From assembly GCA_963777605.1 (NCBI GenBank), contig CAVZRV010000026.1, positions 1 through 13,718 on the forward strand: a stretch of 13,718 nucleotides of DNA, written 5' to 3'. The notes under the pieces were generated by a model. The model did no database searches, was not told the origin of the DNA, and saw only the letters and a program-made list of their open reading frames with translations. The stretch is from an uncultured Acidobacteriota bacterium. GTDB lineage: Bacteria; Acidobacteriota; UBA6911; RPQK01; JAPXNP01. Shown here one piece after another: positions 1 through 13,646 of this stretch; position 1 is the stretch's first letter, and each line of letters begins with the position of its first letter. The translations under genes and the position numbers were made by a program.

Positions 1-28
1 TCTGTGGCGGAGTCGGGGGCCGGGAGAG

Positions 29-3000
29 TCACTCGGACTGTTCCATCAACGACTTTGCAAGTTGGACGGCGTCGGCCATGTCGATCTTCCCGTCTCCATT
101 CACATCTGCTCGTTCAGCAGGTGAAGGTTCGGGGCCGACACCCTGGAGGAAGCGCAGGATTGATACCAGGTCGCGCACGTCGAGTTGGTCGTCCCGGTTG
201 AGGTCACCGGGAACGATCGGCCGCGGAGTCGAATCAGCCAGCAGAGGGTCCGAACCCTTGTCGACCTCTTCGCCGTCGCCATAGCCGTCACCGTCGGAAT
301 CGGATGCCGACGGGTTGCTCCCGATCAGCGATTCCGTCAGGTTGTCCAACCCGTCGCCGTCGTTGTCCTGATCGCTGTCGGCACGGTCCGGATCGAGGTC
401 CGAGTGCCTCCTCGTATCCGTCAGGCAGAAGGTCCCCGTCCCGGTCGGCGTCGAGCAGAACGGGCAACACCACTTCGGAGAAACCGGGGATGTAGACCGA
501 CCCGTCGGACGACCGAAGCTGGACCTGCAGAACGAGCTGTCCCAGCGTCTCGGGGCCGTTGAAGTTCACCGTCCACTCGAGGATGTTCGTCGCTCCGGCT
601 GCCAGCGTTGGCAGGTCGCGGATCTGGTTCGAGTACACCACATCCGGGCCCAGTCCCGGAACGACGAGCTGAGCCGACAGCCCTCCGGCAGGAATGTTAC
701 TGAGATTTGAAATGGATGCCCGGAGAGTGATTGCTGCCGGCACCCGGTTCAGAGTCGAGGTCGGTTGCCCCTCGGACAGCACGTCAACCGACTTGATCAG
801 AACCGTAGCGGAAAGCTTCCCCTGTCCGTCCAGGTCAGTTCGAAACGCCTCCAGTTGGCTGACGTAAGCCGTGATCCCGGCTTCAAGTTCCTGGAGGCTG
901 GCCAGGACGGAATCCCGACGCACGGAATAGTCCGCTTCAGAGAGGATCCCGGCATTAAACACGAACCCCGTCAGACCCATGATCTTCCCGGCCACCGTCA
1001 CCCGCAGGCTCAAGGAGGAATCGAAGAGCCCGGCATAACGGTCATTGAAACCCGGATCGTTGATCAGTTCACCGTAGGCGCTCAAAAGGGGCGCCTCCGC
1101 GACGCGAAGCTGAGCCTCGAACTGACCGGCCAACGGAAACAGGTCACCGGAGAGGTGATCGACCAGATCGTCAAACCGGTCCTGACGAATCAGGGAAGCG
1201 GCGGTGTCGATGCTTTGGGCTAATTCCGCCTCAACCTGCGCGGTCTGCCGGGAAACGCTCTCATGGACCCGAGCCGGAGGCCGTAACCCGGCTCTTCGGA
1301 AGTCGACTGGTGAACCTCCTTCTGGAAACTGGCCCAGTTGAAATGCCCGGGGGAGAATTGCCTCCCACTCCCGCATGAGACCGACGTAGCGGCCCAACAG
1401 GTCAAAGAACCGAACTCCCTTCCCAGCCTTCTCAAGCAGCGCAAGTACAGCGGGAAATTCCAACGCGGCCCCCGCAACAAAAAGCACCGCCGCCTGCTCC
1501 GGTGCAGCGACCGCAGAAGCGCCGCCAGAGAGGTGCCGATGAACTCCGACTTCACCTTTACCTTCTCGTTGACGCTGAGGGTCGAGGACAGGAAATTCTC
1601 CACCGATGCGAGCTTCTGCTGGGTGAGGCGGCCGGAGAGTTGGATTGCCGAGAGGATGGTATTCGCTTCTTCCGGGAGACGGTCGCTGTTGGGACTGAAG
1701 ATCGCGGCCGTTTCCACTGCTTTCTGCAATGATCCCTGGGTCTGCCAGGCAAAGTGGGCAGCCAACATCAGGCGAAACAGGTCGAGTCTCTCGGCACCTG
1801 CCTTTACATAGTTCTCCGGGTACTGATCCACGGCGCCGAGAACAAACAGCGTGTTGAGAAACTGAGCGTAGCCGTACCCGGCACCTGCCAGAAGGTTGTC
1901 TCCGACCACCCTCCTCAACTCGTTGGTATACTTGCCACTAGAATTCTCCGCGGCGGCCACCAGTTCCGTGGCTGCATCACGACGGACCGTCGATCCACGA
2001 ATCGGAATACTGTCGCTGGTCTTGTTGAACTGGTCCTGGATTCCCTTTGCCAGCTTTTCATTGAAGTTCCCCAGGTTAACGAGATCGCCAATCAGATCGA
2101 TGATGACCGCTTCCAGTTGGTCACTCATCAAATCGGCGTCAGCGGCGATGCTTCGGGCAGCACCGATCGCCAGCCAGAGCCGGTAGAGCCGCTCGACAGT
2201 CGGTGTCGGTTCAACGGGGAAAGACTGAGCTAGGGCGATCGCGGCAGCGACTTCGTCGGCATAGGGGCTCGTCCCAAGCTTGTCGATGAAAGGAAAGTTG
2301 AAACCTGCCACTCGGTCCACGTCGTAGACCCCGAGATCGCGCAAGGGGCCGGCAAGGTTGATCACGGCCTGCCGACGGTTGACGACTCCCATCTCGATCT
2401 TGGGAAGTTCCGCGTCGTCTTCAGAGACCGCTGCGGCCAGGCCGGCCGGTTCGCGCACCCCTTCGGCATCGGCCGGGGGTTCAGCATCGAAGGTATAAAC
2501 GCCGGGAGAGAGCGGAAGTTCGTAGATCCCGAAACTGTTAGACAAGTCGGTCGCAGTCTATCCCTCGGCGCTCTCGGCGGTCACACGGACCAACTCGAGC
2601 GGGATCTCGGGACTGGACCCGAGAATCACGACCTTGCCCTTCCGAGAGACGCTGTACTGCTTCTGGTCGTCGGCCAGCAGGACCTCGCCCCCCGAACCGG
2701 TGTCGAAAAGGGAAGCGACGACCCGGATTCCGGTGACCGCCTCGGGGATGATGACACGGGTAACAGGATCGACCGTTCCGGACCCGCGGTTGACCGGCCA
2801 CTCGTAGTTGGACAGCTCGGGAATCGGGGGCAGGATCGCACCCGACTGGTCCTTCACGTCCACCCGGATCAGCCCGTGGTTAGTATCTCGGACCAGGTTG
2901 TACGCGACGTCCAGGTCGAACGTGATCTCCTCCCCCTTGGTCGGGAGAGACCGGTCGGGGGATCGATCGAGTCGATGCGAATCCGCTCGATCTGGTACTC

Positions 3001-6000
3001 GACTGACGGATCGGTCAGCATTTCACCGCCGGAGCCCGACACGAGCAGGGCATCTACCGAGAGGAGATTGGTGTCGTTCGGGACGTCGAAGCTCACTTCG
3101 AAATCGACCGTCCCCAATCCCTCGCTCACGAATTCGAACGGCGGATCGACCAAAAGCTGCCCGTCCCCATGACGGATCTGAAGTTCGACCCGGCCCTGCG
3201 AGCCACCCGTCATCCGGTATCGGACCGTCGCATTGACCGTGACAGACTCGCCTCCCGTGAGCGGCGACTCGGGGTCGGGCGTCAAATCCAGAAACTCGAC
3301 GCTGTCCTCCCGCAGGTAGTGAAGCGGAAGCGAGATGGCGGTGATGTCGGCTGCACTGTCGGGCAGAAGCATGGCTACAACCGAAACGCTGCTGATCTCT
3401 TCCGTGACGCTCTGGGCCACAAGCGAGGCAAACTCGGCGACGGTTGCGGCGGATGTGACCGGCTGGGAAGCCTCCCCCAGCACCAGGTCGATATTGTTGT
3501 CCCTGAACACTCGAACGAAGAGAGTCCCAGAATCGTCGCTGGTCAACTCGTAACGGACGGAGAGGTTCGAGAAAGTGACAGTCCCGTCGGCCCCAACCAC
3601 TGGAAATCCGGAGGAAGCGTCGGGCGAGATCGAAAGGAACTCAACGGTGTCCTGAGGCTGGGCCACACAATTCGAGAACTCGGAGGTATTGTTATCCGGG
3701 TCGGTGGCTGTGGCAGTGAGGAAGTCACCGGCGTATGGAGAATCGAATTCCACATGTCCAGTAGCATCGGTAGTAACCGTCAGAGAACCCAGAAAATCCT
3801 GCCCCTCGCCATAGCCGGAAGGGTCACACGCGGCGTTTGAAAAGAACTGGATCCGGAACTGCGTATCGGGGCGGCTGTCGAGCGTCCCCCGGACGCCGCC
3901 AGGGCTGAAAGTCAGGACCGGGAAGTTCTGGCCTCAGGTTCCCATCCTGATCGTCCCAGTCATCATTTCGCGCGACCCCAGGCACGCCGGTATCTATCCC
4001 TAACCCCCCGTTCGCGAAGATGCTGTTGGTGAGGACGCCATTGCCTTCAGTGTCGCTGCCAAAGATCGAAACACCGGCCTTCCCGTTGAAACCGACAATG
4101 TTCCCTTTGGCGGAATCCTCACCTCCCACCAAGGAATTCAAGCCAGTTAGCGCGACTCCCTCGAATAAGTTGCCAAGTGCGGTTCCGTCCAACCCGACGC
4201 CGATTCGATTGGACTGGATCGTGTTCCCACCGCCACTGAGACTTGTCGCGAGGATTCCCCTCTCAAGGTTCGAGGCAATCACGTTGCCGGCGCCTGGTGC
4301 CCCGATCACAACGTTGGTAGTCCCAGTTCCAATCCGAATCCCATCACGGCCATTTCCCCAAGCGAGGCTGCCTGTCAGATCTGTCCCGATATGGTTGCCC
4401 AGGATGAAGCTTCCAGGGCTTCCCGAGAGGTTGATACCGTCATAGGCCGCTGCCGCAACTATGTTCCCGAGGCCTTCACCCTCCCCGCCGATCGTACCCG
4501 GGGACCCGCTCAGCTCAATGCCATAGCTCCCGTTCCCAAGGGCGGCCGTCCCTAACGCGTCGGTCCCGACGAAGTTTCGTTGAATCAGCACTACGGAGGA
4601 GTCGATGACTCTGACCCCAGTTCCCTTAGTGGCGGAAACAACATTTCCCGAGCCAGGGGCCGCTCCCCCAATGGTGACTCCGTTGCTGTTTCTGATGTAG
4701 AGGCCGAGGTTCCATCCTAAAGGGGTATCTCCAGCATCGTCCGTTCCAACGAAGTTGTTTCGGATAGCAAGGTCTGAGGCCGAGTCTATCGAGATGGCAG
4801 TGCCGCGAAGCGTGTTGGCAAACACGTTTCGGCTTCCATATCCGAGTCCACCGATTGTGACTCCTGAAGCGGCCGCCACTTCGGAGCCGGACGGAAAAAT
4901 CCTGATCCCCTGATAGAGACCTCCCAGTACTTCGCTGCCGGTGGGATCCAGCCCGAACCAGTTGCCGAGAAACTCGATGTCCCCCGAGGTTTCTTTCCAG
5001 ACAACAATACCGTCGCCGTTGCCTACAATCAGATTTCGGGCCGGCTCAACGGTTCCACCGATCACCACCTCGCGCACGTCATCGAGGCGCATGTCGGCGT
5101 CATCCACCTGGGTTGCGGTGGCGTCAGTGCCGACGTAATTGCCTTCGAACAATACGTCCGTGGTCTCCTTGACGATGACACCGGACCCTTCCCAAAGCGC
5201 CAGGCCGCGGACCACTGTGCCTCCAGAGTAAACCGCGATGTACGTCTGCATGTCGACGATGCCGCCGGAAGTCGTTCCGTCAATAACCGCACCTTCGCTC
5301 AAATTCGGGATCGGTCCTCCAGGAAGAACCTGCGTCACGGAGAAGTGGATGGCATCGAGTCCGGGGCTGGCATTCGACTCGTCAATCGCCGCCCAGAAGG
5401 TGCACTGATCGCCCGGGTCACTCGAGGAATCGCACCTGCCGTCTCCCTTCTTGTTGTCCCGCTCGTCGCTGGACCGATTGACCGTAAAGGTCCGGACCGG
5501 GGTTGTCTCCGCAAAGCTCAGCCCCACGGGACCCCGTGAGAGGAGAACCCAGTCATCGAGGCTGTCCGGAGTCAAACGCATGGGGACCATCGCCACGGCA
5601 GCCTCGCTCAGAGAGAATGATGTGGACGCGAATTCTGGTGGAGAGGTTTCGCTCGAGGCCCGGGCTTGGATACCGCCCGCGCCCATGAAAACCTGGACCT
5701 GGCCCAAGTCCGGCCCCATGAGGACCAACTCGTTTCGGGGCGAAGTCGAGAGGTTTCCCGCAGACAGTCGAAGATGACCCGGCTCACCTCGACTAGCCGC
5801 AAGAACGGCGGTCCCGGCAGGCAACTGAAGCAAAGGCTTCTCCCAAAACTCTCCAGATTTCCGATCGAAAGCCAACTGGCGAATCTCGCCCCGGGCGGTC
5901 AGTACCGCCAACTCCTTGCGGAAGTCCCCCGTGAAGTCTCCAACCGCCAGATCGATGGCCTCGGTCGGCATCGGAACGCTAATGGGGGTCGGCGACCCAG

Positions 6001-6869
6001 CCTCCGACCGGTAGCGAGCCGGGATCGAGAGCTCCCGGTCTCTCCCCCGGATGATGCTGACCTCAGACCCGGCGGCCACTGCCAAGTCAATCGGGAAATC
6101 ACCGTCCAGGGCTCCGAGGGCAAGAGCCGAGATCCGGCTCGGATGTCGAATCTCTTCGGGTTCCTGGCGAAGGGCACCGCGGGGGCTTTCGAAAACGAGG
6201 ACGGTCGCTCCTCCTCTGCCGTCGATTCCCACCACGAGATCCGCAAGGCCGTCACGGCGGTTGACCTCCCCGCTGACGAGTGCGGTCACAACACCCGGAA
6301 GCTCAACCCGTTCCGGAGCGCCGAATCGTCCATCCCCTGAACCGGGCATCGGGGAAGAAGCAGCCTCGTCCGTGGCTGCTACGACGAGATCGAGGTGCCC
6401 ATCAGCATCGAAGTCGCCCGCAGCCATGAAGTTGGGAACGACAGGCGAGGACTGCACCATCGCCCCGGGCTCAAACGGGGTATCGGTGAAGACGCCCTCG
6501 GCCTTCCTTCGGAGTGCCTCCCGGCTGTTGCGATGAGCCCGCATCGACGCTCCCGCGGTGTAGAGCAACAATCCCACCATCCGGCCCGCCATACCCGCAA
6601 ACGAGGTCGGGCATACCGTCCTCGTCGAAATCTCCCGACGTCAATGACAACGGATCGACCGATTGTGATGAAAGAAGAAACCGGAACGCGGGCTTCCCTT
6701 CGTACTCGGCTTCGACCGGCCGGCTCGACTGAAGGTTAATCCAGGGACGGCCCTGACCCATCGCACGGAGAACGGCGGAGGAAAGCTCTCCCTCCGGACT
6801 TGCCCCAGCCAGACCCGTCCACAGAGGAAGAAGAAGGCAAAGGCAGAACCGCCCGGCAATCTTCGTCAT
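29..6869 (-). CDS. Gene C: giant (~2,280 aa) secreted multidomain protein with FG-GAP propeller, CSLREA-like domain, beta-helix, Ig-like repeats, alpha-helical domain, Ca-binding repeats and C-terminal dockerin. Interrupted by about 5 frameshifts and one in-frame TAG.
   Basis: ORFs 6471..6932, 3824..6592, 2869..3753, 2558..2863, 1220..2545, 288..1487 and 29..349 join into one continuous protein, with frame changes near 6535, 3935, 2945, 1520 and 400. For example QNFPVLTFSPGGVRGTLDSRPDTQFRIQFFSNAACDPSGYGEGQ bridges 3935-3753, and EEALG|LDPDRADSDQDNDGDGLDNL bridges ~400. The signal peptide MTKIAGRFCLCLLLPLWTGLAGA starts at ATG 6869 and the stop is TGA at 29-31. Confidence 0.8.
32..211 (-). other. 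Type I dockerin-like domain at the C-terminus of gene C
   Basis: Two duplicated Ca-binding loop-helix segments, GDLNRDDQLDVRDLVSILRFL and ADVNGDGKIDMADAVQLAKSL. Both match the dockerin pattern D-x-N-x-D-x-x-(I/L/V)-D-x-x-D followed by a helix, and sit immediately before the stop. Confidence 0.85.
225..455 (-). repeat. Asp-rich bacterial TSP3-like Ca-binding repeats (protein level)
   Basis: DRDGDLLPDGYEEALG|LDP, DNDGDGLDNLTESLIGSNP and DSDGDGYGDGEEVDKGSDP are three copies of D-x-D-G-D-x-x-x-(D/N)-x-x-E-x3-G-x-(D/N)-P. Confidence 0.8.
460..815 (-). other. Ig-like beta-sandwich domain (CARDB/NEW3-like) in gene C
   Basis: ITLRASISNLSNIPAGGLSAQLVVP...LPTLAAGATNILEWTVNF shows the alternating beta-strand pattern with N-x-x-x-x-P-A and L-x-x-G...W-x-V motifs typical of CARDB/NEW3-like folds. 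Confidence 0.55.
820..2380 (-). other. Unassigned ~500-aa predicted all-alpha domain of gene C, with a central hydrophobic segment
   Basis: Rich in Ala, Leu, Glu and Gln with amphipathic helical patterns (e.g. SVLASLQELEAGITAYVSQLEAFRTDL) and no beta-repeat motifs. The hydrophobic stretch lies at ~1420-1545. Confidence 0.55.
2400..2645 (-). other. Carboxypeptidase-regulatory-like (transthyretin-like) beta domain in gene C, containing an in-frame TAG at 2558-2560
   Basis: GKVV...PLELVRVTAESAEG*TATDLSNSFGIYELPLSPGVYTFDAE matches the family pattern G-x-V...P-L-x-x-V-x-V...(T/S)-(D/N)-x-x-G-x-Y-x-L-x-L-x-P-G-x-Y. Confidence 0.6.
2650..3655 (-). repeat. Three divergent tandem ~110-aa Ig-like repeats in gene C
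   Basis: Units begin VEFLSISP, VEFLDLTP and IRIDSIDP. They share V-x-Y-x-(L/M), G-x-(L/V/I)-x-(V/L) and V-x-A-x-L segments and a terminal Tyr. Confidence 0.65.
3665..5495 (-). other. CSLREA-like domain, right-handed parallel beta-helix and C-terminal cap domain in gene C
   Basis: TFTVNRSSDE...GDGRCDS...DQCTFWAAIDESNASPGLDAIHF is a CSLREA variant. It is followed by repeated GN(Y/F/H)(V/I)GTD...G and IGG...GN(V/I)(V/I) turns, then NSIFANGGLGID, QNFPVL and LTATATDPDNNTSEFSNC, which typically close this architecture. Confidence 0.8.
5530..6660 (-). repeat. Seven FG-GAP/VCBS-like repeats, probably a 7-bladed beta-propeller, in gene C
   Basis: GDFDEDGMPDLVCG, GDFDADGHLDLVVA, GEVNRRDGLADLVVG, GALDGDFPIDLAVA, GDFTGDFRKELAVL, GNLSTSPRNELVLM and MRLTPDSLDDWVLL. 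The last two are degenerate. Confidence 0.8.
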
Positions 6870-6928
6870 CAAACTCGATCCGCCGCCGATCCGGCTCTTC
6901 TTTCTCCTCCGGCCGTTGTCCATCATGA

Positions 6929-9900
6929 TCACTTCGGCTCCAGGACTGGGAACGTTGTCAGCAGTATTCCCTCCTGCTTGAGAGCAACTACGGCAATTGG
7001 GGTCGGCGATGTGACTTCAATCCGCCCTTCAAAGTCGGCCTGTCCAGTCAGCGAGTCGGACGACAACTTCGGTGGCGAAGAGCGCCTGGTGCCGGCCCGC
7101 CGACAGATCCTGAACGGTCGTTTCCAGGGTTTCTCCGTCTGGATCCAGGAGGGTCAGGGAGACCTCCGCACCGGCGGATGAAACGTTGGCAAGCGCGATC
7201 CCGGTGTTGGACCCGCCGCCGACCAGGAGCGGGAGGGTGAATGCCTTTCCGACCGGAGAGACCCCGACCGCCGTCTCGGACGAGGAACTCCCATCCGGCT
7301 TGACGGCGGTGAAAATCAGCGTGCCGCCGAGAGGGACCGTCGAACTGACCCGGGCGTAACCCGAGGCCGGTTACCAGGCCATCGGTCTGAAGGAACAGAG
7401 CTCCAGCGGCTGGAATCTCCAGGTCGAAACTCGAACCGGTGCGGCTGTCGGTCAGCGTCAGCGCGAAGGGAGAACCGTCGGAGCGGAAGAATTCGATCTC
7501 TCCCACCGCATCGGCCTCGGACCGGTTGACGAAGACCAGCGTTGTGACAAAGCTGCCCCCGGCAAACTGCCCGTTGGCAACCTGCGGAAACACGATCTCA
7601 TTCTGGCCGGCTGAAGGCGGGGGGAGCGAGTCGGAGGCGATCACCGAGCCGGCTGGAAAGCCCCGGCACAAGGCTGTTACCGGCCGCGTCCGAGACGTCT
7701 GCATCGACCAGGCTGAGAGCGACGGCGGTACCCACGGGGACACTGTCGTCGAGGCGGAGGGTCAGGTTCGCCAAAACTCCTTCCGATCCCGACAGTGTGT
7801 CAAGGCCGCTCGAGAAGCCGGCTACCGTGATCCGGTTCGCCTCAATCGAGTAGCTCAGAGTGTGATTCCCGGCCAGGTCACCGGCGGAGACGACTCTGGA
7901 CTCGGGTACGGAAAGCAGATCCGGGTTGAAAGCCAGCGTGAACCGGAAGGCCGAGACCCCGTCCCCTCCCTCGATCCGCACTGGAACGATAGCGGTACGT
8001 CCGGGGGGTGCCAATGCCGTGCCGACCGACAGCGCTACGCGGGTCGGTTCGAGGATCGTCTGGATCCCGTCGTCGGTCCCGCCATAGGTTGCCTGGACAG
8101 CATCCCTCACTGGAAAATCAGTCGAGTTGGTGCGGCCGACCAGGTAGATGTTGCCCGCCCCGTCCACATCCAGGTCAGAGATATCCTCGCTGGAAGACGA
8201 AGGGTCGCCGGTATCGCCTCCAAAGTAACTCGAGAAAAGGACGGACGGCGGATCGTCGGACGAAAAGACCGCAATGAACCCGTCACTGGTCGACCTAGGC
8301 GGCCTTCAACGGGGAGACCGTTGGGAAATCGTTGGAGTTTGTGAAGCCGGCCAGATAGGCCTGTCCGTCATCCCCAACCCTCACCGCAAACGCCCAGTTC
8401 AGCCCCCACCGCCCCCCAGGTACGTGGAATAGAGCAGTTGGTTTCCGCTCGACGAAAGTCGGCTCAGGAACGCATTTTCATATCCTTCCCGATCGAAGAC
8501 GGTTGCGCCGCGGGCCGTCACCGGAAAATCGTCCGACCCTGTGAATCCCGTCAGGTAGATGCTTCCGTCGGGTCCCCGATCAATGCCCCGGATCTCGTCC
8601 TGGCTGCCCCCGCCCAGGTAGGTCGAGAAAAGAACCTGACCTCCGCTGGAACTGATCTTCACAACCGTGCCGTCCCGTCCTCCACCCGACGCCGGCTGCG
8701 CCGCTCCCGAGACCGGGAAATCGGTTGATTCAGTCAATCCTCCCGGGCGAGATTGCCAGAACCGTCGAGCGACAGGGCCAGAAAGAGATCCAGCCCACTT
8801 CCGCCGTAGTAGGTGGAAAACCGAACTGACGAGCCCCCAGGGGCCAATTTCGTTGCGAAACCGTCATAGTCGCCGTCGAGACCGGCCTTGAGGGCGTTGG
8901 ACGTCGGGAAATCTGCCGATCGCGTGTAGCCTGCCAGGTAGATGTTTCCCGACGGATCGACCTGGATTCCCTCGATATTGTCGTCGCTGGAGCCTCCAAG
9001 ATAGGACGAGGAAAGAAATCCGGGAACCGTCGGATGACAGCCTGGTGATGAATCCGTCTCTCGAACCGACCACCGGGCCTTGGTTGATGTCGCTCTGGAT
9101 CGGTTTGACCAGCGGAAAATCGGCCGATTTGGTGGTTCCCGCGACGTCAGGGAGTCCCGTGGGCCCCACGGCCAACTCCCACCCATACTCCTCGCGGTCG
9201 CCCCCGAGGTAGGTTGCAAACAGCAGTTCGCCGCCGCCGGGGCTGTACTTGGCAATGAATACATCACTTGAATAGAAGCCGGGGCGGTCACGCTTTTCCG
9301 ACTGTACCGGGTCGAGTGTCGGGAAATCGTCGGAGTAGGTGTCCCCGACCACAAAGATGTTGCCGTCGGAGTCGAGGGCGACGACGGATCGACTCACTGG
9401 CGCTTCCTCCGAGATAGGTCGACAGCCGAATGACCGGATCAACGGTCAGCTTTTGCTCCCGGTTTCGGTCGGGAATCCGAAATCCATAGCTCTGTCTGCC
9501 CCGGACTTCGAACGTTCCGGGGACTCCGGTCCTCCTTTCCTGGAGCACAACGGGCGGACTTTGAACCAGGACGCGGTCACCCTGCCGAATAAGCAGGTTG
9601 CCATCTTCGTCGAGTTCCAGCAAATCAGCCCCTCAACCCGCATCTCGACCTGAGACAGGTCTCCAAAGGGCTCGAGAGTGAGGTCGTACTCGAGTTCCCC
9701 ATCCCGACTGTAAAACCAGGCATCAACACCCGGGTAAATGTCGCGGTAAACGAGGCGCCGGAAGTAGGGAGCGCCGGTGTGCCATTCCTCCGGGGTTCGG
9801 CCTCGAAAGTAGTGGCTCCGGGCGGCGGTCTTTTCGACGCCGCGGGGTCCAGAGGAAGGCTCCGATCCGACAAATTGGAGCTGGACACCCTCCTTCGAGC

Positions 9901-10123
9901 CTCCCAAACCGATCGATACGCCGTCGTGCGAGAACCCGATCCCTCGCCTGCCCGCCCGCGCCCAGGAAGAGGTAGTTCGAATCCACCTGTCCGCCGATTC
10001 GCTTCGAAGGTGAAGTCCCGCTGCTGGATCGCCTTCCGAGCAACCGACAGGGCGACCGCCTGGCTCCAGACGCAGGACGCCAGGAGCAGCACGATTGCCG
10101 GCAGACTGTTCTGCGCCCTCCAC
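6929..10123 (-). CDS. Gene B: secreted SBBP (beta-propeller repeat) protein with a cohesin-like domain and the conserved C-terminal module, ~1,060 aa, with many frameshifts
   Basis: Signal-peptide-like RAQNSLPAIVLLLASCVWSQAVA. The N-terminal domain is the one typical of SBBP proteins (FEANR.QVD, HYFRG..PEEW.TGAPYFRRLVYRDIYPGVD..FYSRDGELEYDL, LELDEDGNL, LTVDPV). Seven (S/A)(T/S)Y(L/Y/F)GG repeats follow, then a cohesin, and the protein ends ...VALKQEGILLTTFPVLEPK-TGA (6929-6931). Start inferred at GTG 10123. Confidence 0.78.
6932..7605 (-). other. Conserved ~225-aa C-terminal module of gene B (paralogue of the gene A tail)
   Basis: NEIVFPQVANG..GGSFVTTLVFVN...RSDGSP...GYARV..TVPLGGTLIF...ETAVG...SNTGIALAN...ALKQEGILLTTFPV. 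Confidence 0.8.
7640..8040 (-). other. Cohesin-like domain in gene B
   Basis: LSVGTALAPPGRTAIVPVRIEGGDGVSAFRFTLAFNPDLLSV...AGDLAGNHTL...RITVAGFS...EGVLANLTL...LVDADVSDAAGN matches the cohesin pattern G-x-T-x-x-V-P-V...F-x-L-x-(F/Y)-(D/N)-P-x-x-L...G-x-L-x-x-L-x-(F/L). Confidence 0.78.
8060..9430 (-). repeat. Seven SBBP-type beta-propeller repeats in gene B
   Basis: STYLGGS, ATYLGGD, SSYLGGS, STYYGGS, STYLGGG, STYLGGG and SSYFGGD recur at ~200-nt spacing. Each is followed by a segment resembling D-x-x-G-x-x-Y-x-x-G-x-T-x-S-x-D-F-P. Confidence 0.85.
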
Positions 10124-11301
10124 TCGGGCACCACCGGAAATGTCGTCAACAGGGCTCCGCTTTGCTTGAGTGCGATGGCGGCAACGGCCTCCGATGCCAC
10201 CACCTGTATGAACCCGTTAAAGGCCTGCTGGGCAGGGATTTCGCTGAAGAACTCGCTGGCAAAACGCGGTACGTGCTCTCCGGGCGACAGGTTCAAGGAC
10301 CGGCTGCCGATGATCTGGCCGTCCGGCCGGTGCAGAGTCAGGGTCAACTGGATACTGGTCCGGCTCGTGTTGGCAAACGCGATCCCGGTGTTCGAAAGCC
10401 CGGGCTCAACCAGAATTGGCACCTTGAAGTGAGTCAGCAGCAGAGAGGCTCCCACTCCGGTTTCAGCGGTGGTCGTTCCGGCACTGTTGCGGGACGAAAA
10501 GAGCAACGTACCTCCAATGGGGGCGGTTGCCCGAATTTCGGCGTATCCGATACCCAGAGCGCCGGAGGCATCCGTCTCCATGAAGACCGATTCCTGGGAT
10601 CCCAGCGCAAATGGGAACACCGAGCCAGCCCGCCCATCCTGGAGTTGAACAACTAAAGGAGATCCATCGGACCGATACAACCGCACTTCGGCGTCGGTAG
10701 CGAGGCCGCTCGAATTTGGCGAAAATCAGCGTCGTGCGAAAGCTGCCGCCGGGATAGGATCCGTCAACAACCTGGGGAAAGAAGAGATCATTCACTCAAC
10801 GCCGGCGCCAACGACCCAGCGCCCAAGGTCAAATTCCCGGAAACCGGCTGGACCTCCACCCGATTTCCCAGCCGATCAGAAGCCAGGACGTTTGACAACT
10901 GGGACAGGGATCTGCACCCCGTTTGGAATGCCTGCCTGCAGGTTCACCCTCAACTGCAGAAGTGTCCCCCTGTCTGCCCCGAACTCGCTCGAGGACGCTG
11001 ACGAAACCAGGATTCTTGCCGACCCGTTTCGACGTTCAAATCCCAGAGTGTGGTCGGGCAGGAGAGATCCAGCAATCCAGAAGTCTTCCGCGGGCAGCGT
11101 CAAGCGGGAGTCGAGACCAAGCGTCAACTCGATCGCGGAGATGCCGGCTCCGCCTTCCAGGATGACAGGCACCACCAATTCCGTTCCTGCTGGTAAGGAA
11201 AGGGTCGGACCGTGAGTTGCGCCTGACCAAGTGCATGACTGCCAAGGCACAGCAACACCTCAGCAAAAAGGAAAGCCGAGCAGTCTTCCGGTCGCTGCCA
11301 T
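10120..11301 (-). CDS. Gene A: small secreted cohesin-domain protein with the conserved C-terminal module (minimal anchoring scaffoldin-like), ~390 aa, about 5 frameshifts
   Basis: ATG at 11301 gives MAATGRLL|AFLFAEVLLCLGSHALGQAQLTV (signal peptide). The cohesin is in ORF 10876..11250, followed by NDLFFPQVVDG...TTLIFA|NSSGLATDAEVRLYRSDGSP...ALKQSGALLTTFPVVPE. The stop is inferred at ~10120; as written the frame runs on into gene B. Confidence 0.72.
10125..10795 (-). other. Conserved ~225-aa C-terminal module of gene A
   Basis: NDLFFPQVVDG..GGSFRTTLIFAN...RSDGSP...GYAEI..TAPIGGTLLF...ETGVG...SNTGIAFAN...ALKQSGALLTTFPV is colinear with the gene B tail. Confidence 0.8.
10830..11215 (-). other. 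Cohesin-like domain in gene A
   Basis: LPAGTELVVPVILEGGAGISAIELTLGLDSRLTL...AGSLLPDHTL...ARILVSS...RGTLLQLRV...LSNVLASDRLGN aligns by eye along its whole length with the gene B cohesin (VPV.(L/I)EGG.G(I/V)SA...TL, AG.L...HTL, SD..GN). Confidence 0.72.
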
Positions 11302-11344: not shown

Positions 11345-11500
11345 CCCAATTCATTCAAACAATCGGATAAGAATGCGGTCAGTCTAGCGGACGCAGAAGG
11401 AATCCGCCAGTATTTACCTGGAAATTCAATTGAAAGAGGTGGATAACTTGGACAATCTGGAAATTTGGAGCTGTGTTGCCGGGATTGCCATTGGAGCCAA
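11345..11500. promoter_or_regulatory. AT-rich putative promoter/operator region upstream of the gene A-B-C cluster
   Basis: Local drop in GC content. Contains the perfect palindrome TTCAATTGAA (11425-11434) and direct repeats CTGGAAATT (11418-11426, 11457-11465) and TTGGAGC (11465-11471, 11491-11497). Confidence 0.35.
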
Positions 11501-11878
11501 AGCTAACTCGTCTTTCCGTGCAAAATCCGTCAGCGGGCACACGAAACCCCCGGGCAAAGCCTCCGGCGGGGGCCAAACCCCTAACCCCATCCAGTAATTA
11601 CGAACGTGTCGGAAAAAGTGCGAAGAAGCCCCGTAAAGAAAGGAAAAAGACGGCAAAGGCCCCGTTTTTGAAGGCATTGGCAGCGAAGGGGCCACCGGGG
11701 AGAAAGGATGCAGAAACAATCCAGGGCGAGACGCTTCTCTGCCCGAGTTTGGAGACCACACCCCAAGGTCTGGCGTTCGCCCTCTCCCCCAGTTCGGAGG
11801 CTTCCCGCCGGAACGACCAAAGCAAACTTCAGCCTCCCGGTGATCCACCTCGCAGTCACGTTTCGGTATGAATTTGAA

Positions 11879-12952
11879 TTAGCGCTCGACCGACAGCAGC
11901 GCCCCTCTGGTGGCTATCAGTAGTGCCTGGGAGTCGGCTACTACTCCGGCTTCTGCGATGACGGTGACATCGACGATCTCGGCTTTCGAGGTTCTGGGCC
12001 GGGAGTTGCCTTTCAGCGTAATCCTGGCGTTGGTGTCGTCCACCCTCTCAACAGCGCCCAAACCGACGCCGGGAGGAAGATTCTCAACGGACCAACGGCC
12101 TCGGGTCAACGTCTTCGCGAACTTCCCGTTGGTCAACTTTACGTTCACGATCCCGCCATCTTCCTGGCCCAGCCTGATGGGAGCCGACTGGGAAAGCTTC
12201 ATCGAAGGAGCCTTCGGATTCCGGCGATAGTACCGCACGTAATCGACCTTCCAATAGGCGGGCAACTGGTTGTCCGATTGCCGGACGTCTCCGGCCCAGC
12301 CATCGTACTTGGCCTCGAGTGTCAGGTAGATCCAGTTCGGCTTGTCTGCGGTCATCGTCCGTGTGATCCAGGTTCTCTGGTCGTCCACGAAGAAATCAAA
12401 CCCTTTCTCGTGCCAGTCACCCGCAAACAGGTGCCAATCCGAACGGGATCCCTTGAATTGCACGCGGGCCCCTTCCCACTTGTGCCCGGTTCCGCTGCCC
12501 TGGTGAATATTGTGCTCGACGATATCGTTTCGGTACGGGTCTTCCATGAAGTCCACCTCGGCACCGTCGTAGTTGGGGTTGTACGATTCCCTGCCCCACA
12601 ACCAGAATGCCCCCCAGTAGCCGGGAACGGTGCTGAGATCGGCACGGGCTTCGTAGTAGCCCCACTGGAACGATTCCTTCGTCCGGATGAAACCGAGGTG
12701 GTACTTGCCGTCCTCCGCCTTCCGGAGACGCAGGACCAGGTGCCCCTCGCCGTCGAGGTAACTGTCGTCCGGGTCGTTGAAGGCGTTTCGACGGTCGCCC
12801 TCCTCGCACGTCCAGACGTCCCAATTGAGTTGCTTGCCGTTGAACTCGTCGTGGAAGACCAACTCCCAGCCGTCGCCGGGAGGGTCGGCAAGAAGGGGAA
12901 TCGCGGACAGAATAAGGCCCAGCATCAGGAATCGCACCGGGGAGTTCTTCAT
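11879..12952 (-). CDS. Secreted glycoside hydrolase family 16 protein (357 aa) with a C-terminal beta-sandwich module
   Basis: Signal peptide MKNSPVRFLMLGLILSAIPLLA. GH16 motifs WELVFHDEFNG, FQWGYYEAR, GYWGAFWL, catalytic EVDFME (E-x-D-x-x-E), WHLFAGDW, FFVD and VDYVRYY. No frameshift seen. The true start is ATG 12952 rather than 13303. Confidence 0.92.
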   Translation of the reverse strand: MKNSPVRFLMLGLILSAIPLLADPPGDGWELVFHDEFNGKQLNWDVWTCEEGDRRNAFNDPDDSYLDGEGHLVLRLRKAEDGKYHLGFIRTKESFQWGYYEARADLSTVPGYWGAFWLWGRESYNPNYDGAEVDFMEDPYRNDIVEHNIHQGSGTGHKWEGARVQFKGSRSDWHLFAGDWHEKGFDFFVDDQRTWITRTMTADKPNWIYLTLEAKYDGWAGDVRQSDNQLPAYWKVDYVRYYRRNPKAPSMKLSQSAPIRLGQEDGGIVNVKLTNGKFAKTLTRGRWSVENLPPGVGLGAVERVDDTNARITLKGNSRPRTSKAEIVDVTVIAEAGVVADSQALLIATRGALLSVER

Positions 12953-13256: not shown

Positions 13257-13646
13257 TCACCGGTGGGACTTCTTCGCGGCGGCTTTGACCAGCATCTCTT
13301 CAACTCGAAACCTCACAATCCTGGCGATCAGTTCAAATGGAATCGGCCGATCGAGGGGGAACTGAACCGCGCCCTTGGACCACTTGTAGTCAGTGAACTC
13401 GTCCTGGAAGTTCCTGATCCCGGATGCGGTCGGGTCAACCCGATGTGATTCTTGTGCGCCGCAAAGTGAACCAGGTTCCCACGCAGGGAAAAGGTCGGCA
13501 TTTGATAGCTGATGGTTTCTCCCGGCGTCGGGCGCAGGGCCTTCTTAATAGTCTGCCTGATCTCTCTGAGGATTTCCTGGGTCGGCCGACGGGAAACCGG
13601 CAATGTACTGGTCAATGGTCGATGGGGGCGTTTCGTCAGATTTCAT
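13257..13646 (-). CDS. DUF1801 / YdhG-like (iron chaperone family) protein, ~129 aa, with two compensating frameshifts
   Basis: MKSDETPPSTIDQYIAGFP|..TQEILREIRQTIKKA...ETISYQMPTFSLRGNLVHFAAHKNHIG|.PTASGIRNFQDEFTDYKWSKGAVQFPLDRPIPFELIARIVRFRVEE...TGA. A strong RBS, AAGGAGG, lies just upstream of ATG 13646. Confidence 0.88.

Follow-up and report, generated by a model that had tools for sequence, protein, structure and literature searches.

A putative non-cellulosomal cohesin–dockerin adaptor locus in an uncultured acidobacterium

In cellulosomes, primary scaffoldins combine cohesins with a carbohydrate-binding module (CBM), and anchoring scaffoldins combine a cohesin with an S-layer homology (SLH) domain or a sortase signal. 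The cohesin fold is a flattened β-sandwich, a nine-stranded jelly roll. Cohesin and dockerin modules outside cellulosomes were reportedly described by Peer and colleagues in 2009; many such pairs exist and, to our knowledge, almost all of them are unstudied. Among the titles listed by literature searches, none concerned such a cohesin–dockerin pairing or architecture in Acidobacteriota. The locus described here occupies most of a 13,718-nucleotide contig (CAVZRV010000026.1; the window, analysed over its whole length) of an uncultured acidobacterium and comprises three genes, A, B and C. The products of A and B each carry a cohesin followed by a common C-terminal tail, and C encodes a giant protein that ends in a dockerin.

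On balance we favour, by no great measure, the reading that this locus is a minimal non-cellulosomal cohesin–dockerin adaptor system, in which A and B would lend their tail non-covalently to dockerin-tagged proteins. The data show the modules and their folds, the operon structure and the conserved pairing of genes, and also how far the tail has expanded and where in proteins it sits. In the proposed mechanism, A and B would be exported, each with a cohesin and then an ASRAH-type dyad, and C would be an exported giant whose sole link to them is its C-terminal calcium-type dockerin. This dockerin would dock onto the cohesin of A and/or B at an extracellular or periplasmic site, and the docked C would thereby gain non-covalently a binding module found covalently attached to dozens of other exported proteins in this genome. 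The ligand of the tail would then set the position of the complex, the likeliest target being an envelope, matrix or substrate glycan.

Gene layout and the cohesin and dockerin modules

The three genes are co-directional on the minus strand (Table 1), with the stop codon of C at 29–31 and the ATG of A at 11301, which match the outer coordinates (29 and 11301) given in the initial annotation of this DNA. The tight packing noted there was also borne out, since neighbouring genes overlap by 4 nucleotides: the stop of A and the start of B share GTGA in a full-length twin of the window on contig C28 of the same assembly, and in the window the stop of B (6929–6931) overlaps a GTG codon of C that begins at 6932. 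The window copies of A and B are disrupted, A by indels that leave four TGA codons in its reading; both genes are intact in the twin, where they encode 393 residues (L008:11115-12296:-) and 1063 residues (L008:7927-11118:-), respectively. Signal peptides of A, B and C were judged by eye from the translations only. In Pfam, intact B matched DUF7948 (139 bits), five SBBP stretches and Cohesin, while the frames of C in the window matched FG-GAP, TSP3_bac and Dockerin_1 and gave a weak NosD/β-helix signal. A helical region of about 600 residues in C belongs to no family. Sequence searches of the Protein Data Bank yielded a single weak match (E 0.08) for the Ig-like/helical piece of C, taken through its orthologue in the related genome G004, and no match for the FG-GAP/β-helix piece.

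Table 1. Features of the window, with positions counted from its first letter
Feature	Position	Strand	Basis
Gene A: signal peptide, cohesin (about 10821-11223), tail (about 10123-10808)	10120..11301	-	match to residues 1-393
Cohesin module of A	10821..11223	-	homology to B, fold model
Gene B: signal peptide, DUF7948, SBBP β-propeller, cohesin (7667-8038), tail (about 6932-7600)	6929..10123	-	Pfam, homology
Cohesin module of B	7667..8038	-	Pfam, 34.3 bits in genome search
Gene C: signal peptide, FG-GAP, right-handed β-helix repeats, Ig-like/CarboxypepD_reg-like sandwiches, helical region, TSP3, dockerin	29..6932	-	
TSP3-type calcium-binding repeats of C, ahead of the dockerin	230..420	-	TSP3_bac 35.3 bits
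Dockerin of C, loops DLNRDDQLDVRD and DVNGDGKIDMAD	44..220	-	Dockerin_1 41.6 bits
Secreted GH16 glycoside hydrolase without dockerin, upstream neighbour outside the system	11879..12952	-	Glyco_hydro_16 42.3 bits
DUF1801-like frame, weak, upstream of A	13328-13642	-	25 bits, below cut-off 27.2

As originally described, A and B each place one cohesin directly before the common tail (residues 165–393 of A, 229 residues; about 836–1063 of B), residues 29–393 of A aligning with residues 698–1060 of B at 39% identity (E 2e-67). C was said to lack this tail, to end in a dockerin and to have no glycoside-hydrolase domain, and all three statements stand: a scan with our own hidden Markov model (HMM) found no tail in C, the C-terminal dockerin is recognized by Pfam, and neither Pfam nor NCBIfam found a glycoside-hydrolase domain.

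The cohesin and dockerin modules are genuine family members by score and by fold. A HMMER check against both families, proposed with the initial annotation, placed them above the cut-off: the B cohesin scored 33.0–33.3 bits for PF00963 (cut-off 24.1; window frame 7598–8305) and the C dockerin 41.6 bits for PF00404 (cut-off 22.9, E 1.5e-10), in the last frame of C (29–565), rising to 44.5 bits in a genome-wide Pfam search. A alone gave no Pfam match at E ≤ 1, and A-like proteins of relatives score 44–59 bits for Cohesin. The AlphaFold2 model of A (predicted local distance difference test, pLDDT, 91.7; alignment of 34 sequences) shows a cohesin over residues 25–162. Its best structural match was 5nrk_A (VIA Z 19.0, root mean square deviation (rmsd) 1.5 over 134 residues), followed by 2xdh (VIA Z 18.9; Foldseek E 1.9e-12), the non-cellulosomal cohesin of Archaeoglobus fulgidus. 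Cohesin or cohesin-like modules account for 18 of the 21 top VIA rows, and the cellulosomal structures matched (5nrk, 3ul4, 4dh2, 1ohz) give Z of 16–19 and rmsd of 1.5–2.1. The cohesin identity suggested at first is upheld, for A by its homology to B and its model and for B by Pfam.

The dockerin of C contains two 12-residue calcium-binding loops, read from the translation, whose aspartates do not vary across 11 related dockerins. A complex prediction for the A cohesin (residues 26–165, 34 aligned rows) with the C dockerin (11 rows) gave a score of 0.13 against a mark of 0.32 and counts neither way.

Fold and spread of the shared tail

In the models, the tail folds as two consecutive β-sandwiches of the TM1070/ASRT-like (ASRAH) type. 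The tail-only model reached a pLDDT of 95.6 (32 sequences), and its second sandwich superposes on TM1070 (1nc7_A) with Z 13.8 and rmsd 2.0 over 101 of 116 residues, and on ASRT, the Anabaena sensory rhodopsin transducer (2ii7_A), with Z 10.5, the next row scoring 7.0. Homology between the two halves of the tail is supported by hhalign (E 2.4e-5, 86 columns). Four residues, F175 and N196 in the first half and F292 and N311 in the second, vary little or not at all across 34 sequences, each pair falling within strands 1 and 2 of its half. According to De Souza, Iyer and Aravind (2009, PMC2739507), the hallmarks of the ASRAH superfamily are an aromatic residue in strand 1 and an asparagine at the end of strand 2. 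By their place in the strands, the tail residues may correspond to W7 and N32 of TM1070. The same authors state that secreted ASRAH families form dyads or tetrads, that sugars or other small ligands are the predicted binding partners of the superfamily, and that TM1070 is a tetramer whose dimer interface forms part of the cleft walls (PMC2739507).

NCBIfam gave no match for A or for the tail. Two further identities were tried and rejected. TIGR03437 (Soli_cterm) has no match in the genome, and hhalign gave a probability of 0.3% for 32 tails against six such domains. RbmA, factor XIII barrels and similar Foldseek hits (TM 0.2) reflect merely two consecutive sandwiches.

The tail is widespread. 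A phmmer search with A against 1.84 billion representatives returned 2,209 proteins at E ≤ 0.001, with 949 at ≤ 1e-10 and 176 at ≤ 1e-30. Among the best 150 of the 2,209, cohesin-tail proteins about 390 residues long account for some two dozen; the remainder match the tail alone, mostly as two stretches, at either end of or inside long proteins. Partner domains found by Pfam in 47 of these best 150 were NosD/β-helix, SBBP, Sortilin/BNR, PKD, Kelch, PQQ, peptidase C39-like and CarboxypepD_reg. Within this genome our own HMM found 93 near-full tail matches, one of them on the contig of the window. On the other contigs, 77 open frames contain a tail, which is C-terminal in 46, N-terminal in 14 and at neither end in 23, six short frames entering both the C-terminal and the N-terminal count. 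Two tails, and thus four sandwiches, occur in 15 of the 77 frames, and some tails stand alone.

These distributions bear on what the tail does. The initial annotation took it for a cell-surface anchor, with A as a minimal anchoring scaffoldin, B as an anchor with its own propeller and C as the displayed protein. We consider this unlikely, even though a C-terminal tail in 46 of the 77 frames, its presence on many kinds of exported proteins, as with sorting or anchoring domains, and the conserved pairing of cohesin-tail and dockerin genes would all suit an anchor, and a cohesin directly before an anchor module is the layout of an anchoring scaffoldin. Pfam and NCBIfam found no SLH, sortase/LPXTG, lipobox, PEP-CTERM or other anchor family in A or B. 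The modelled fold is that of a soluble, ligand-binding type of sandwich, and tail proteins end in ...LLTTFPVVPE, with no transmembrane or amphipathic end. The tail is moreover not confined to the C-terminus, being also N-terminal, internal, tandem or solitary, and an anchor would leave passage across the outer membrane unexplained. Of the claim that A is a minimal anchor or adaptor and B an anchor, the adaptor part stands as our proposal and the anchor part is not supported, the searches having returned no known anchor motif.

Alternatively, the tail may be an oligomerisation module, in which ASRAH dyads pair in a tetrad-like manner and A and B act as multivalent non-covalent scaffoldins that cluster dockerin proteins. 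The tetrameric state of TM1070 and the dyads and tetrads of ASRAH families (PMC2739507) point in this direction, as do the 15 frames with two tails and the two stretches seen in most long phmmer matches. A was, however, modelled as a monomer, and stand-alone and single tails are common, and we regard oligomerisation as very unlikely to be the function of the tail.

Gene pairing, gene integrity and the adaptor reading

Genome-wide scans with Pfam models and with HMMs built from our own alignments place few cohesins and dockerins in this genome. Pfam found three dockerin and four cohesin places, and our HMMs found six cohesin and three significant dockerin places; with the twins on C26 (the contig of the window) removed, four distinct cohesins and two distinct dockerins remain, all in C28:65.4-91.8 kb. 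One dockerin protein besides C answers the earlier call for a count, a BNR propeller, and neither of the two has a glycoside-hydrolase domain. The BNR-propeller gene ends in the dockerin and overlaps by 4 nucleotides a further cohesin-tail gene, intact in C28, so that a second module of the same kind lies nearby. In agreement with the initial annotation, the complex is not a cellulosome, because there is no anchoring motif, each protein has one cohesin and the two dockerin proteins are not glycoside hydrolases.

Related genomes point to a conserved pair of genes. Among 40 relatives that share its family and order (including the unpublished genome G018), a full-length A-like gene occurs in eight, all eight with a dockerin match at E ≤ 0.001; by Pfam, 11 of the 40 have both modules, four a dockerin only, five a cohesin only and 20 neither. 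Our HMMs were also used to scan 16 distinct cohesin-tail loci from this genome and other Acidobacteriota; at 14 of these, a count drawn from kin and so not from independent loci, a dockerin gene of the same orientation lies next to the cohesin-tail gene or no more than 1.3 kb from it. L030, on a 6.7-kb contig, and L032 are the exceptions. This adjacency argues for a functional cohesin–dockerin pair. The partner proteins are TIG-repeat proteins with an N-terminal dockerin (four loci), three proteins of no other family, a subtilase with leucine-rich repeats, an amidohydrolase, a DUF11-repeat protein and a TSP3 protein, joined by the BNR propeller and C as the partners in the present genome. Because the cargos vary among loci, the conserved unit is the cohesin-tail gene with its neighbouring dockerin gene and not A-B-C. 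Conservation of the three-gene order, raised initially as a check, was not found, whereas the pairing of a cohesin with a dockerin gene was. In an even sample of the phylum, an A-type cohesin occurs in 6 of 301 genomes, this one included, all of the same order or class.

C, the large cargo, is not conserved. Its helical region was matched in 3 of 41 genomes including this one, at 72% identity in G004 and at 34% over half of the query in G036, and a word-index search with it returned the G004 protein as sole match. That protein is the only clear orthologue of C among the 40 relatives, and its gene lies far from any cohesin gene.

Two other arrangements were seen. At L033, L034 and L035 (genomes G010 and G004), a dockerin protein of roughly 190–200 residues is encoded immediately upstream of a second protein, which starts with a cohesin and continues with many Big_9/cadherin-like repeats. 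In L025:325-3297:- (G034:C164), a single open frame joins an Lgt (prolipoprotein diacylglyceryl transferase) domain to a hydrophobic segment, after which come a cohesin, a tail and Ig-like domains of the TIG and ASH types; given the ATG at residue 300, translation may start internally.

The adaptor role of A and B is suggested by what else carries the tail. Cargo types that have a dockerin beside a cohesin-tail gene also occur fused to the tail, namely β-helix, BNR/Sortilin and SBBP proteins. A paralogue of the FG-GAP/β-helix half of C lies 15–22 kb away in C28 and is 30–38% identical; this giant (L009:715-8136:+; G000:C28:57714-65135), split over several frames, has no dockerin and ends in a DUF5719-like tail. 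A and B are read as adaptors because the same cargo types carry the tail directly and the C paralogue carries a tail-like domain.

Several points weigh against this adaptor reading. Binding between the cohesins and dockerins is here suggested by conserved gene adjacency only, and the loci counted are those of kin. Sugar binding by ASRAH domains is a prediction. Pfam found no ASRT match for A, B or 32 tails, so that membership of the ASRAH superfamily would rest on fold and motif rather than on sequence score. The first tail sandwich has generic structural matches only (Z ≤ 7) and is linked to the TM1070 fold solely through its homology to the second half. DUF5719 (PF18986) is weakly matched by 3 of 32 tails at E ≤ 0.1 (best 0.0027); it is sub-threshold in 4 of 47 tail proteins, and one paralogue, at 26.5 bits, just exceeds the cut-off of 26.2. 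No paper mentioning this family was listed by a literature search. Acidobacteria are diderm, and a signal peptide alone leads only to the periplasm, not outside the cell. The Lgt-fused cohesin-tail protein of G034 hints at an inner-membrane or periplasmic site. Finally, C is frame-broken in both copies, the twin showing the same number of changes and private breaks of its own; the breaks near 3930 and 405 are an identical extra C in both copies, and the G004 orthologue has an in-frame TAG and TAA (L042:14641 and 16834; G004:C1). Gene C may therefore be a pseudogene, since it is broken in both copies and its orthologue contains two stops. The middle piece of that orthologue is recorded at NCBI as a separate hypothetical protein of 725 residues.

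The state of C raises the further explanation that the locus is decaying or mis-assembled, that C is a pseudogene, as are the window copies of A and B, and that no complex forms in this organism. The window is the entire contig C26 of an assembly (G000) of 6.73 Mb in 53 contigs, and its long coding frames in this region, all on the minus strand, are fragmented. Its twin (G000:C28:80490-94205) is 97.7% identical, differing by 49 indels and 267 mismatches that lie in patches (MAFFT pair alignment). In the GH16 gene, 14 of the 17 mismatches fall on codon position 3, so the two copies are read as real strain variants, the window's being the poorer consensus of the two. Guided by the G004 orthologue, the path of C in the window runs through frames -2, -3, -2, -1 and -2, with breaks near 6500–6640, 3930, 2935, 1200–1500 and 405. 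The 49 indels, the at least four frame changes of C in both copies, the two identical breaks and the stops in G004 all favour decay, as does the splitting of further genes of C28:57-73 kb between frames; rpoB and rpoC, moreover, are open in this genome, so the assembly is not poor throughout. By contrast, C28 has intact copies of A and B and of the second cohesin-tail gene. At the break near 2935, each copy has a 1-nucleotide deletion of its own, the two lying 18 nucleotides apart and one of them in a C5 run; combined, the copies would read through and match the G004 protein, a pattern typical of consensus errors. All shifted frames of C still encode a conserved protein, 57–67% identical to G004, and strain heterogeneity of the region may have degraded the long-read consensus. 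Decay or mis-assembly of the whole locus thus appears distinctly unlikely. For C, the breaks may be consensus errors or true decay; a search for public sequencing runs containing window 1–7100 listed none.

Small twin contigs such as C26 probably contribute to the 5.68% contamination figure of the assembly. Between the GH16 gene and gene A lies a dispersed repeat of ~300 bp (window 11461–11765), with 24 copies elsewhere in the genome at 74–89% identity on 11 contigs. Rfam gave no match in the window, this repeat included, and a promoter/terminator scan 5′ of gene A gave no signal above shuffles.

Significance and comparison with described systems

Four cohesins and two dockerins in a single region of about 27 kb make the locus a compact, testable case, and the two-gene module is conserved in one acidobacterial order while its cargos change (protease, amidohydrolase, repeat proteins). 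The ASRAH-like dyad lies outside the sequence libraries searched and, of the exported modules in these genomes, is one of the most expanded. We put forward, as a tentative and rather doubtful extension, that the tail serves Acidobacteriota as a lineage-specific retention module, holding exported proteins to a single shared glycan of the envelope or matrix, and that the cohesin-tail proteins of roughly 390 residues are a new class of adaptor. Through them, dockerin-tagged enzymes and adhesins encoded next door would share the retention module non-covalently, giving diderm bacteria a plug-in means of display at the surface or in the matrix, distinct from cellulosomes. Were the tail to bind a defined glycan, this would explain the placement of many acidobacterial exoproteins and would also offer a new orthogonal cohesin–dockerin pair for protein engineering.

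Among described modules, TIGR03437 (Soli_cterm) recurs at the C-terminus of many Solibacter proteins. It resembles the tail in its length of 225 positions and in recurring within Acidobacteriota genomes (17 matches in G055), but has no sequence relation to it. With the ASRAH superfamily (PMC2739507), which includes secreted, dyad-forming families, the tail shares the modelled fold of its second sandwich and the dyad layout, and its near-invariant asparagine and aromatic residues may correspond to the hallmarks. It differs in lacking an ASRT match and in the far larger size of its family (2,209 clusters; 93 copies here), and fusion to cohesins is absent from the abstract and section 4 of that paper.

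Compared with cellulosomal scaffoldins (5nrk, 3ul4, 4dh2, 1ohz), the locus has the same cohesin fold, a type-I-like dockerin with two calcium loops and a cohesin fused to a targeting module. In contrast to them, each protein here has a single cohesin and no SLH or sortase motif, and the ASRAH dyad takes the place of CBM3 or SLH. Cellulosomes also differ from a system with only two distinct dockerin proteins, neither a glycoside hydrolase, and in their Gram-positive Firmicute hosts, the host here being an acidobacterium and diderm. Closest are the non-cellulosomal modules, which the locus resembles in its single cohesins and dockerins, in belonging to a non-cellulolytic organism and in having proteins without glycoside hydrolases, and 2xdh is one of the two best fold matches of the A cohesin. 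Unlike in those modules, the cohesin here is always followed by an ASRAH-like dyad and, at most of the loci scanned (14/16), has its dockerin gene alongside.

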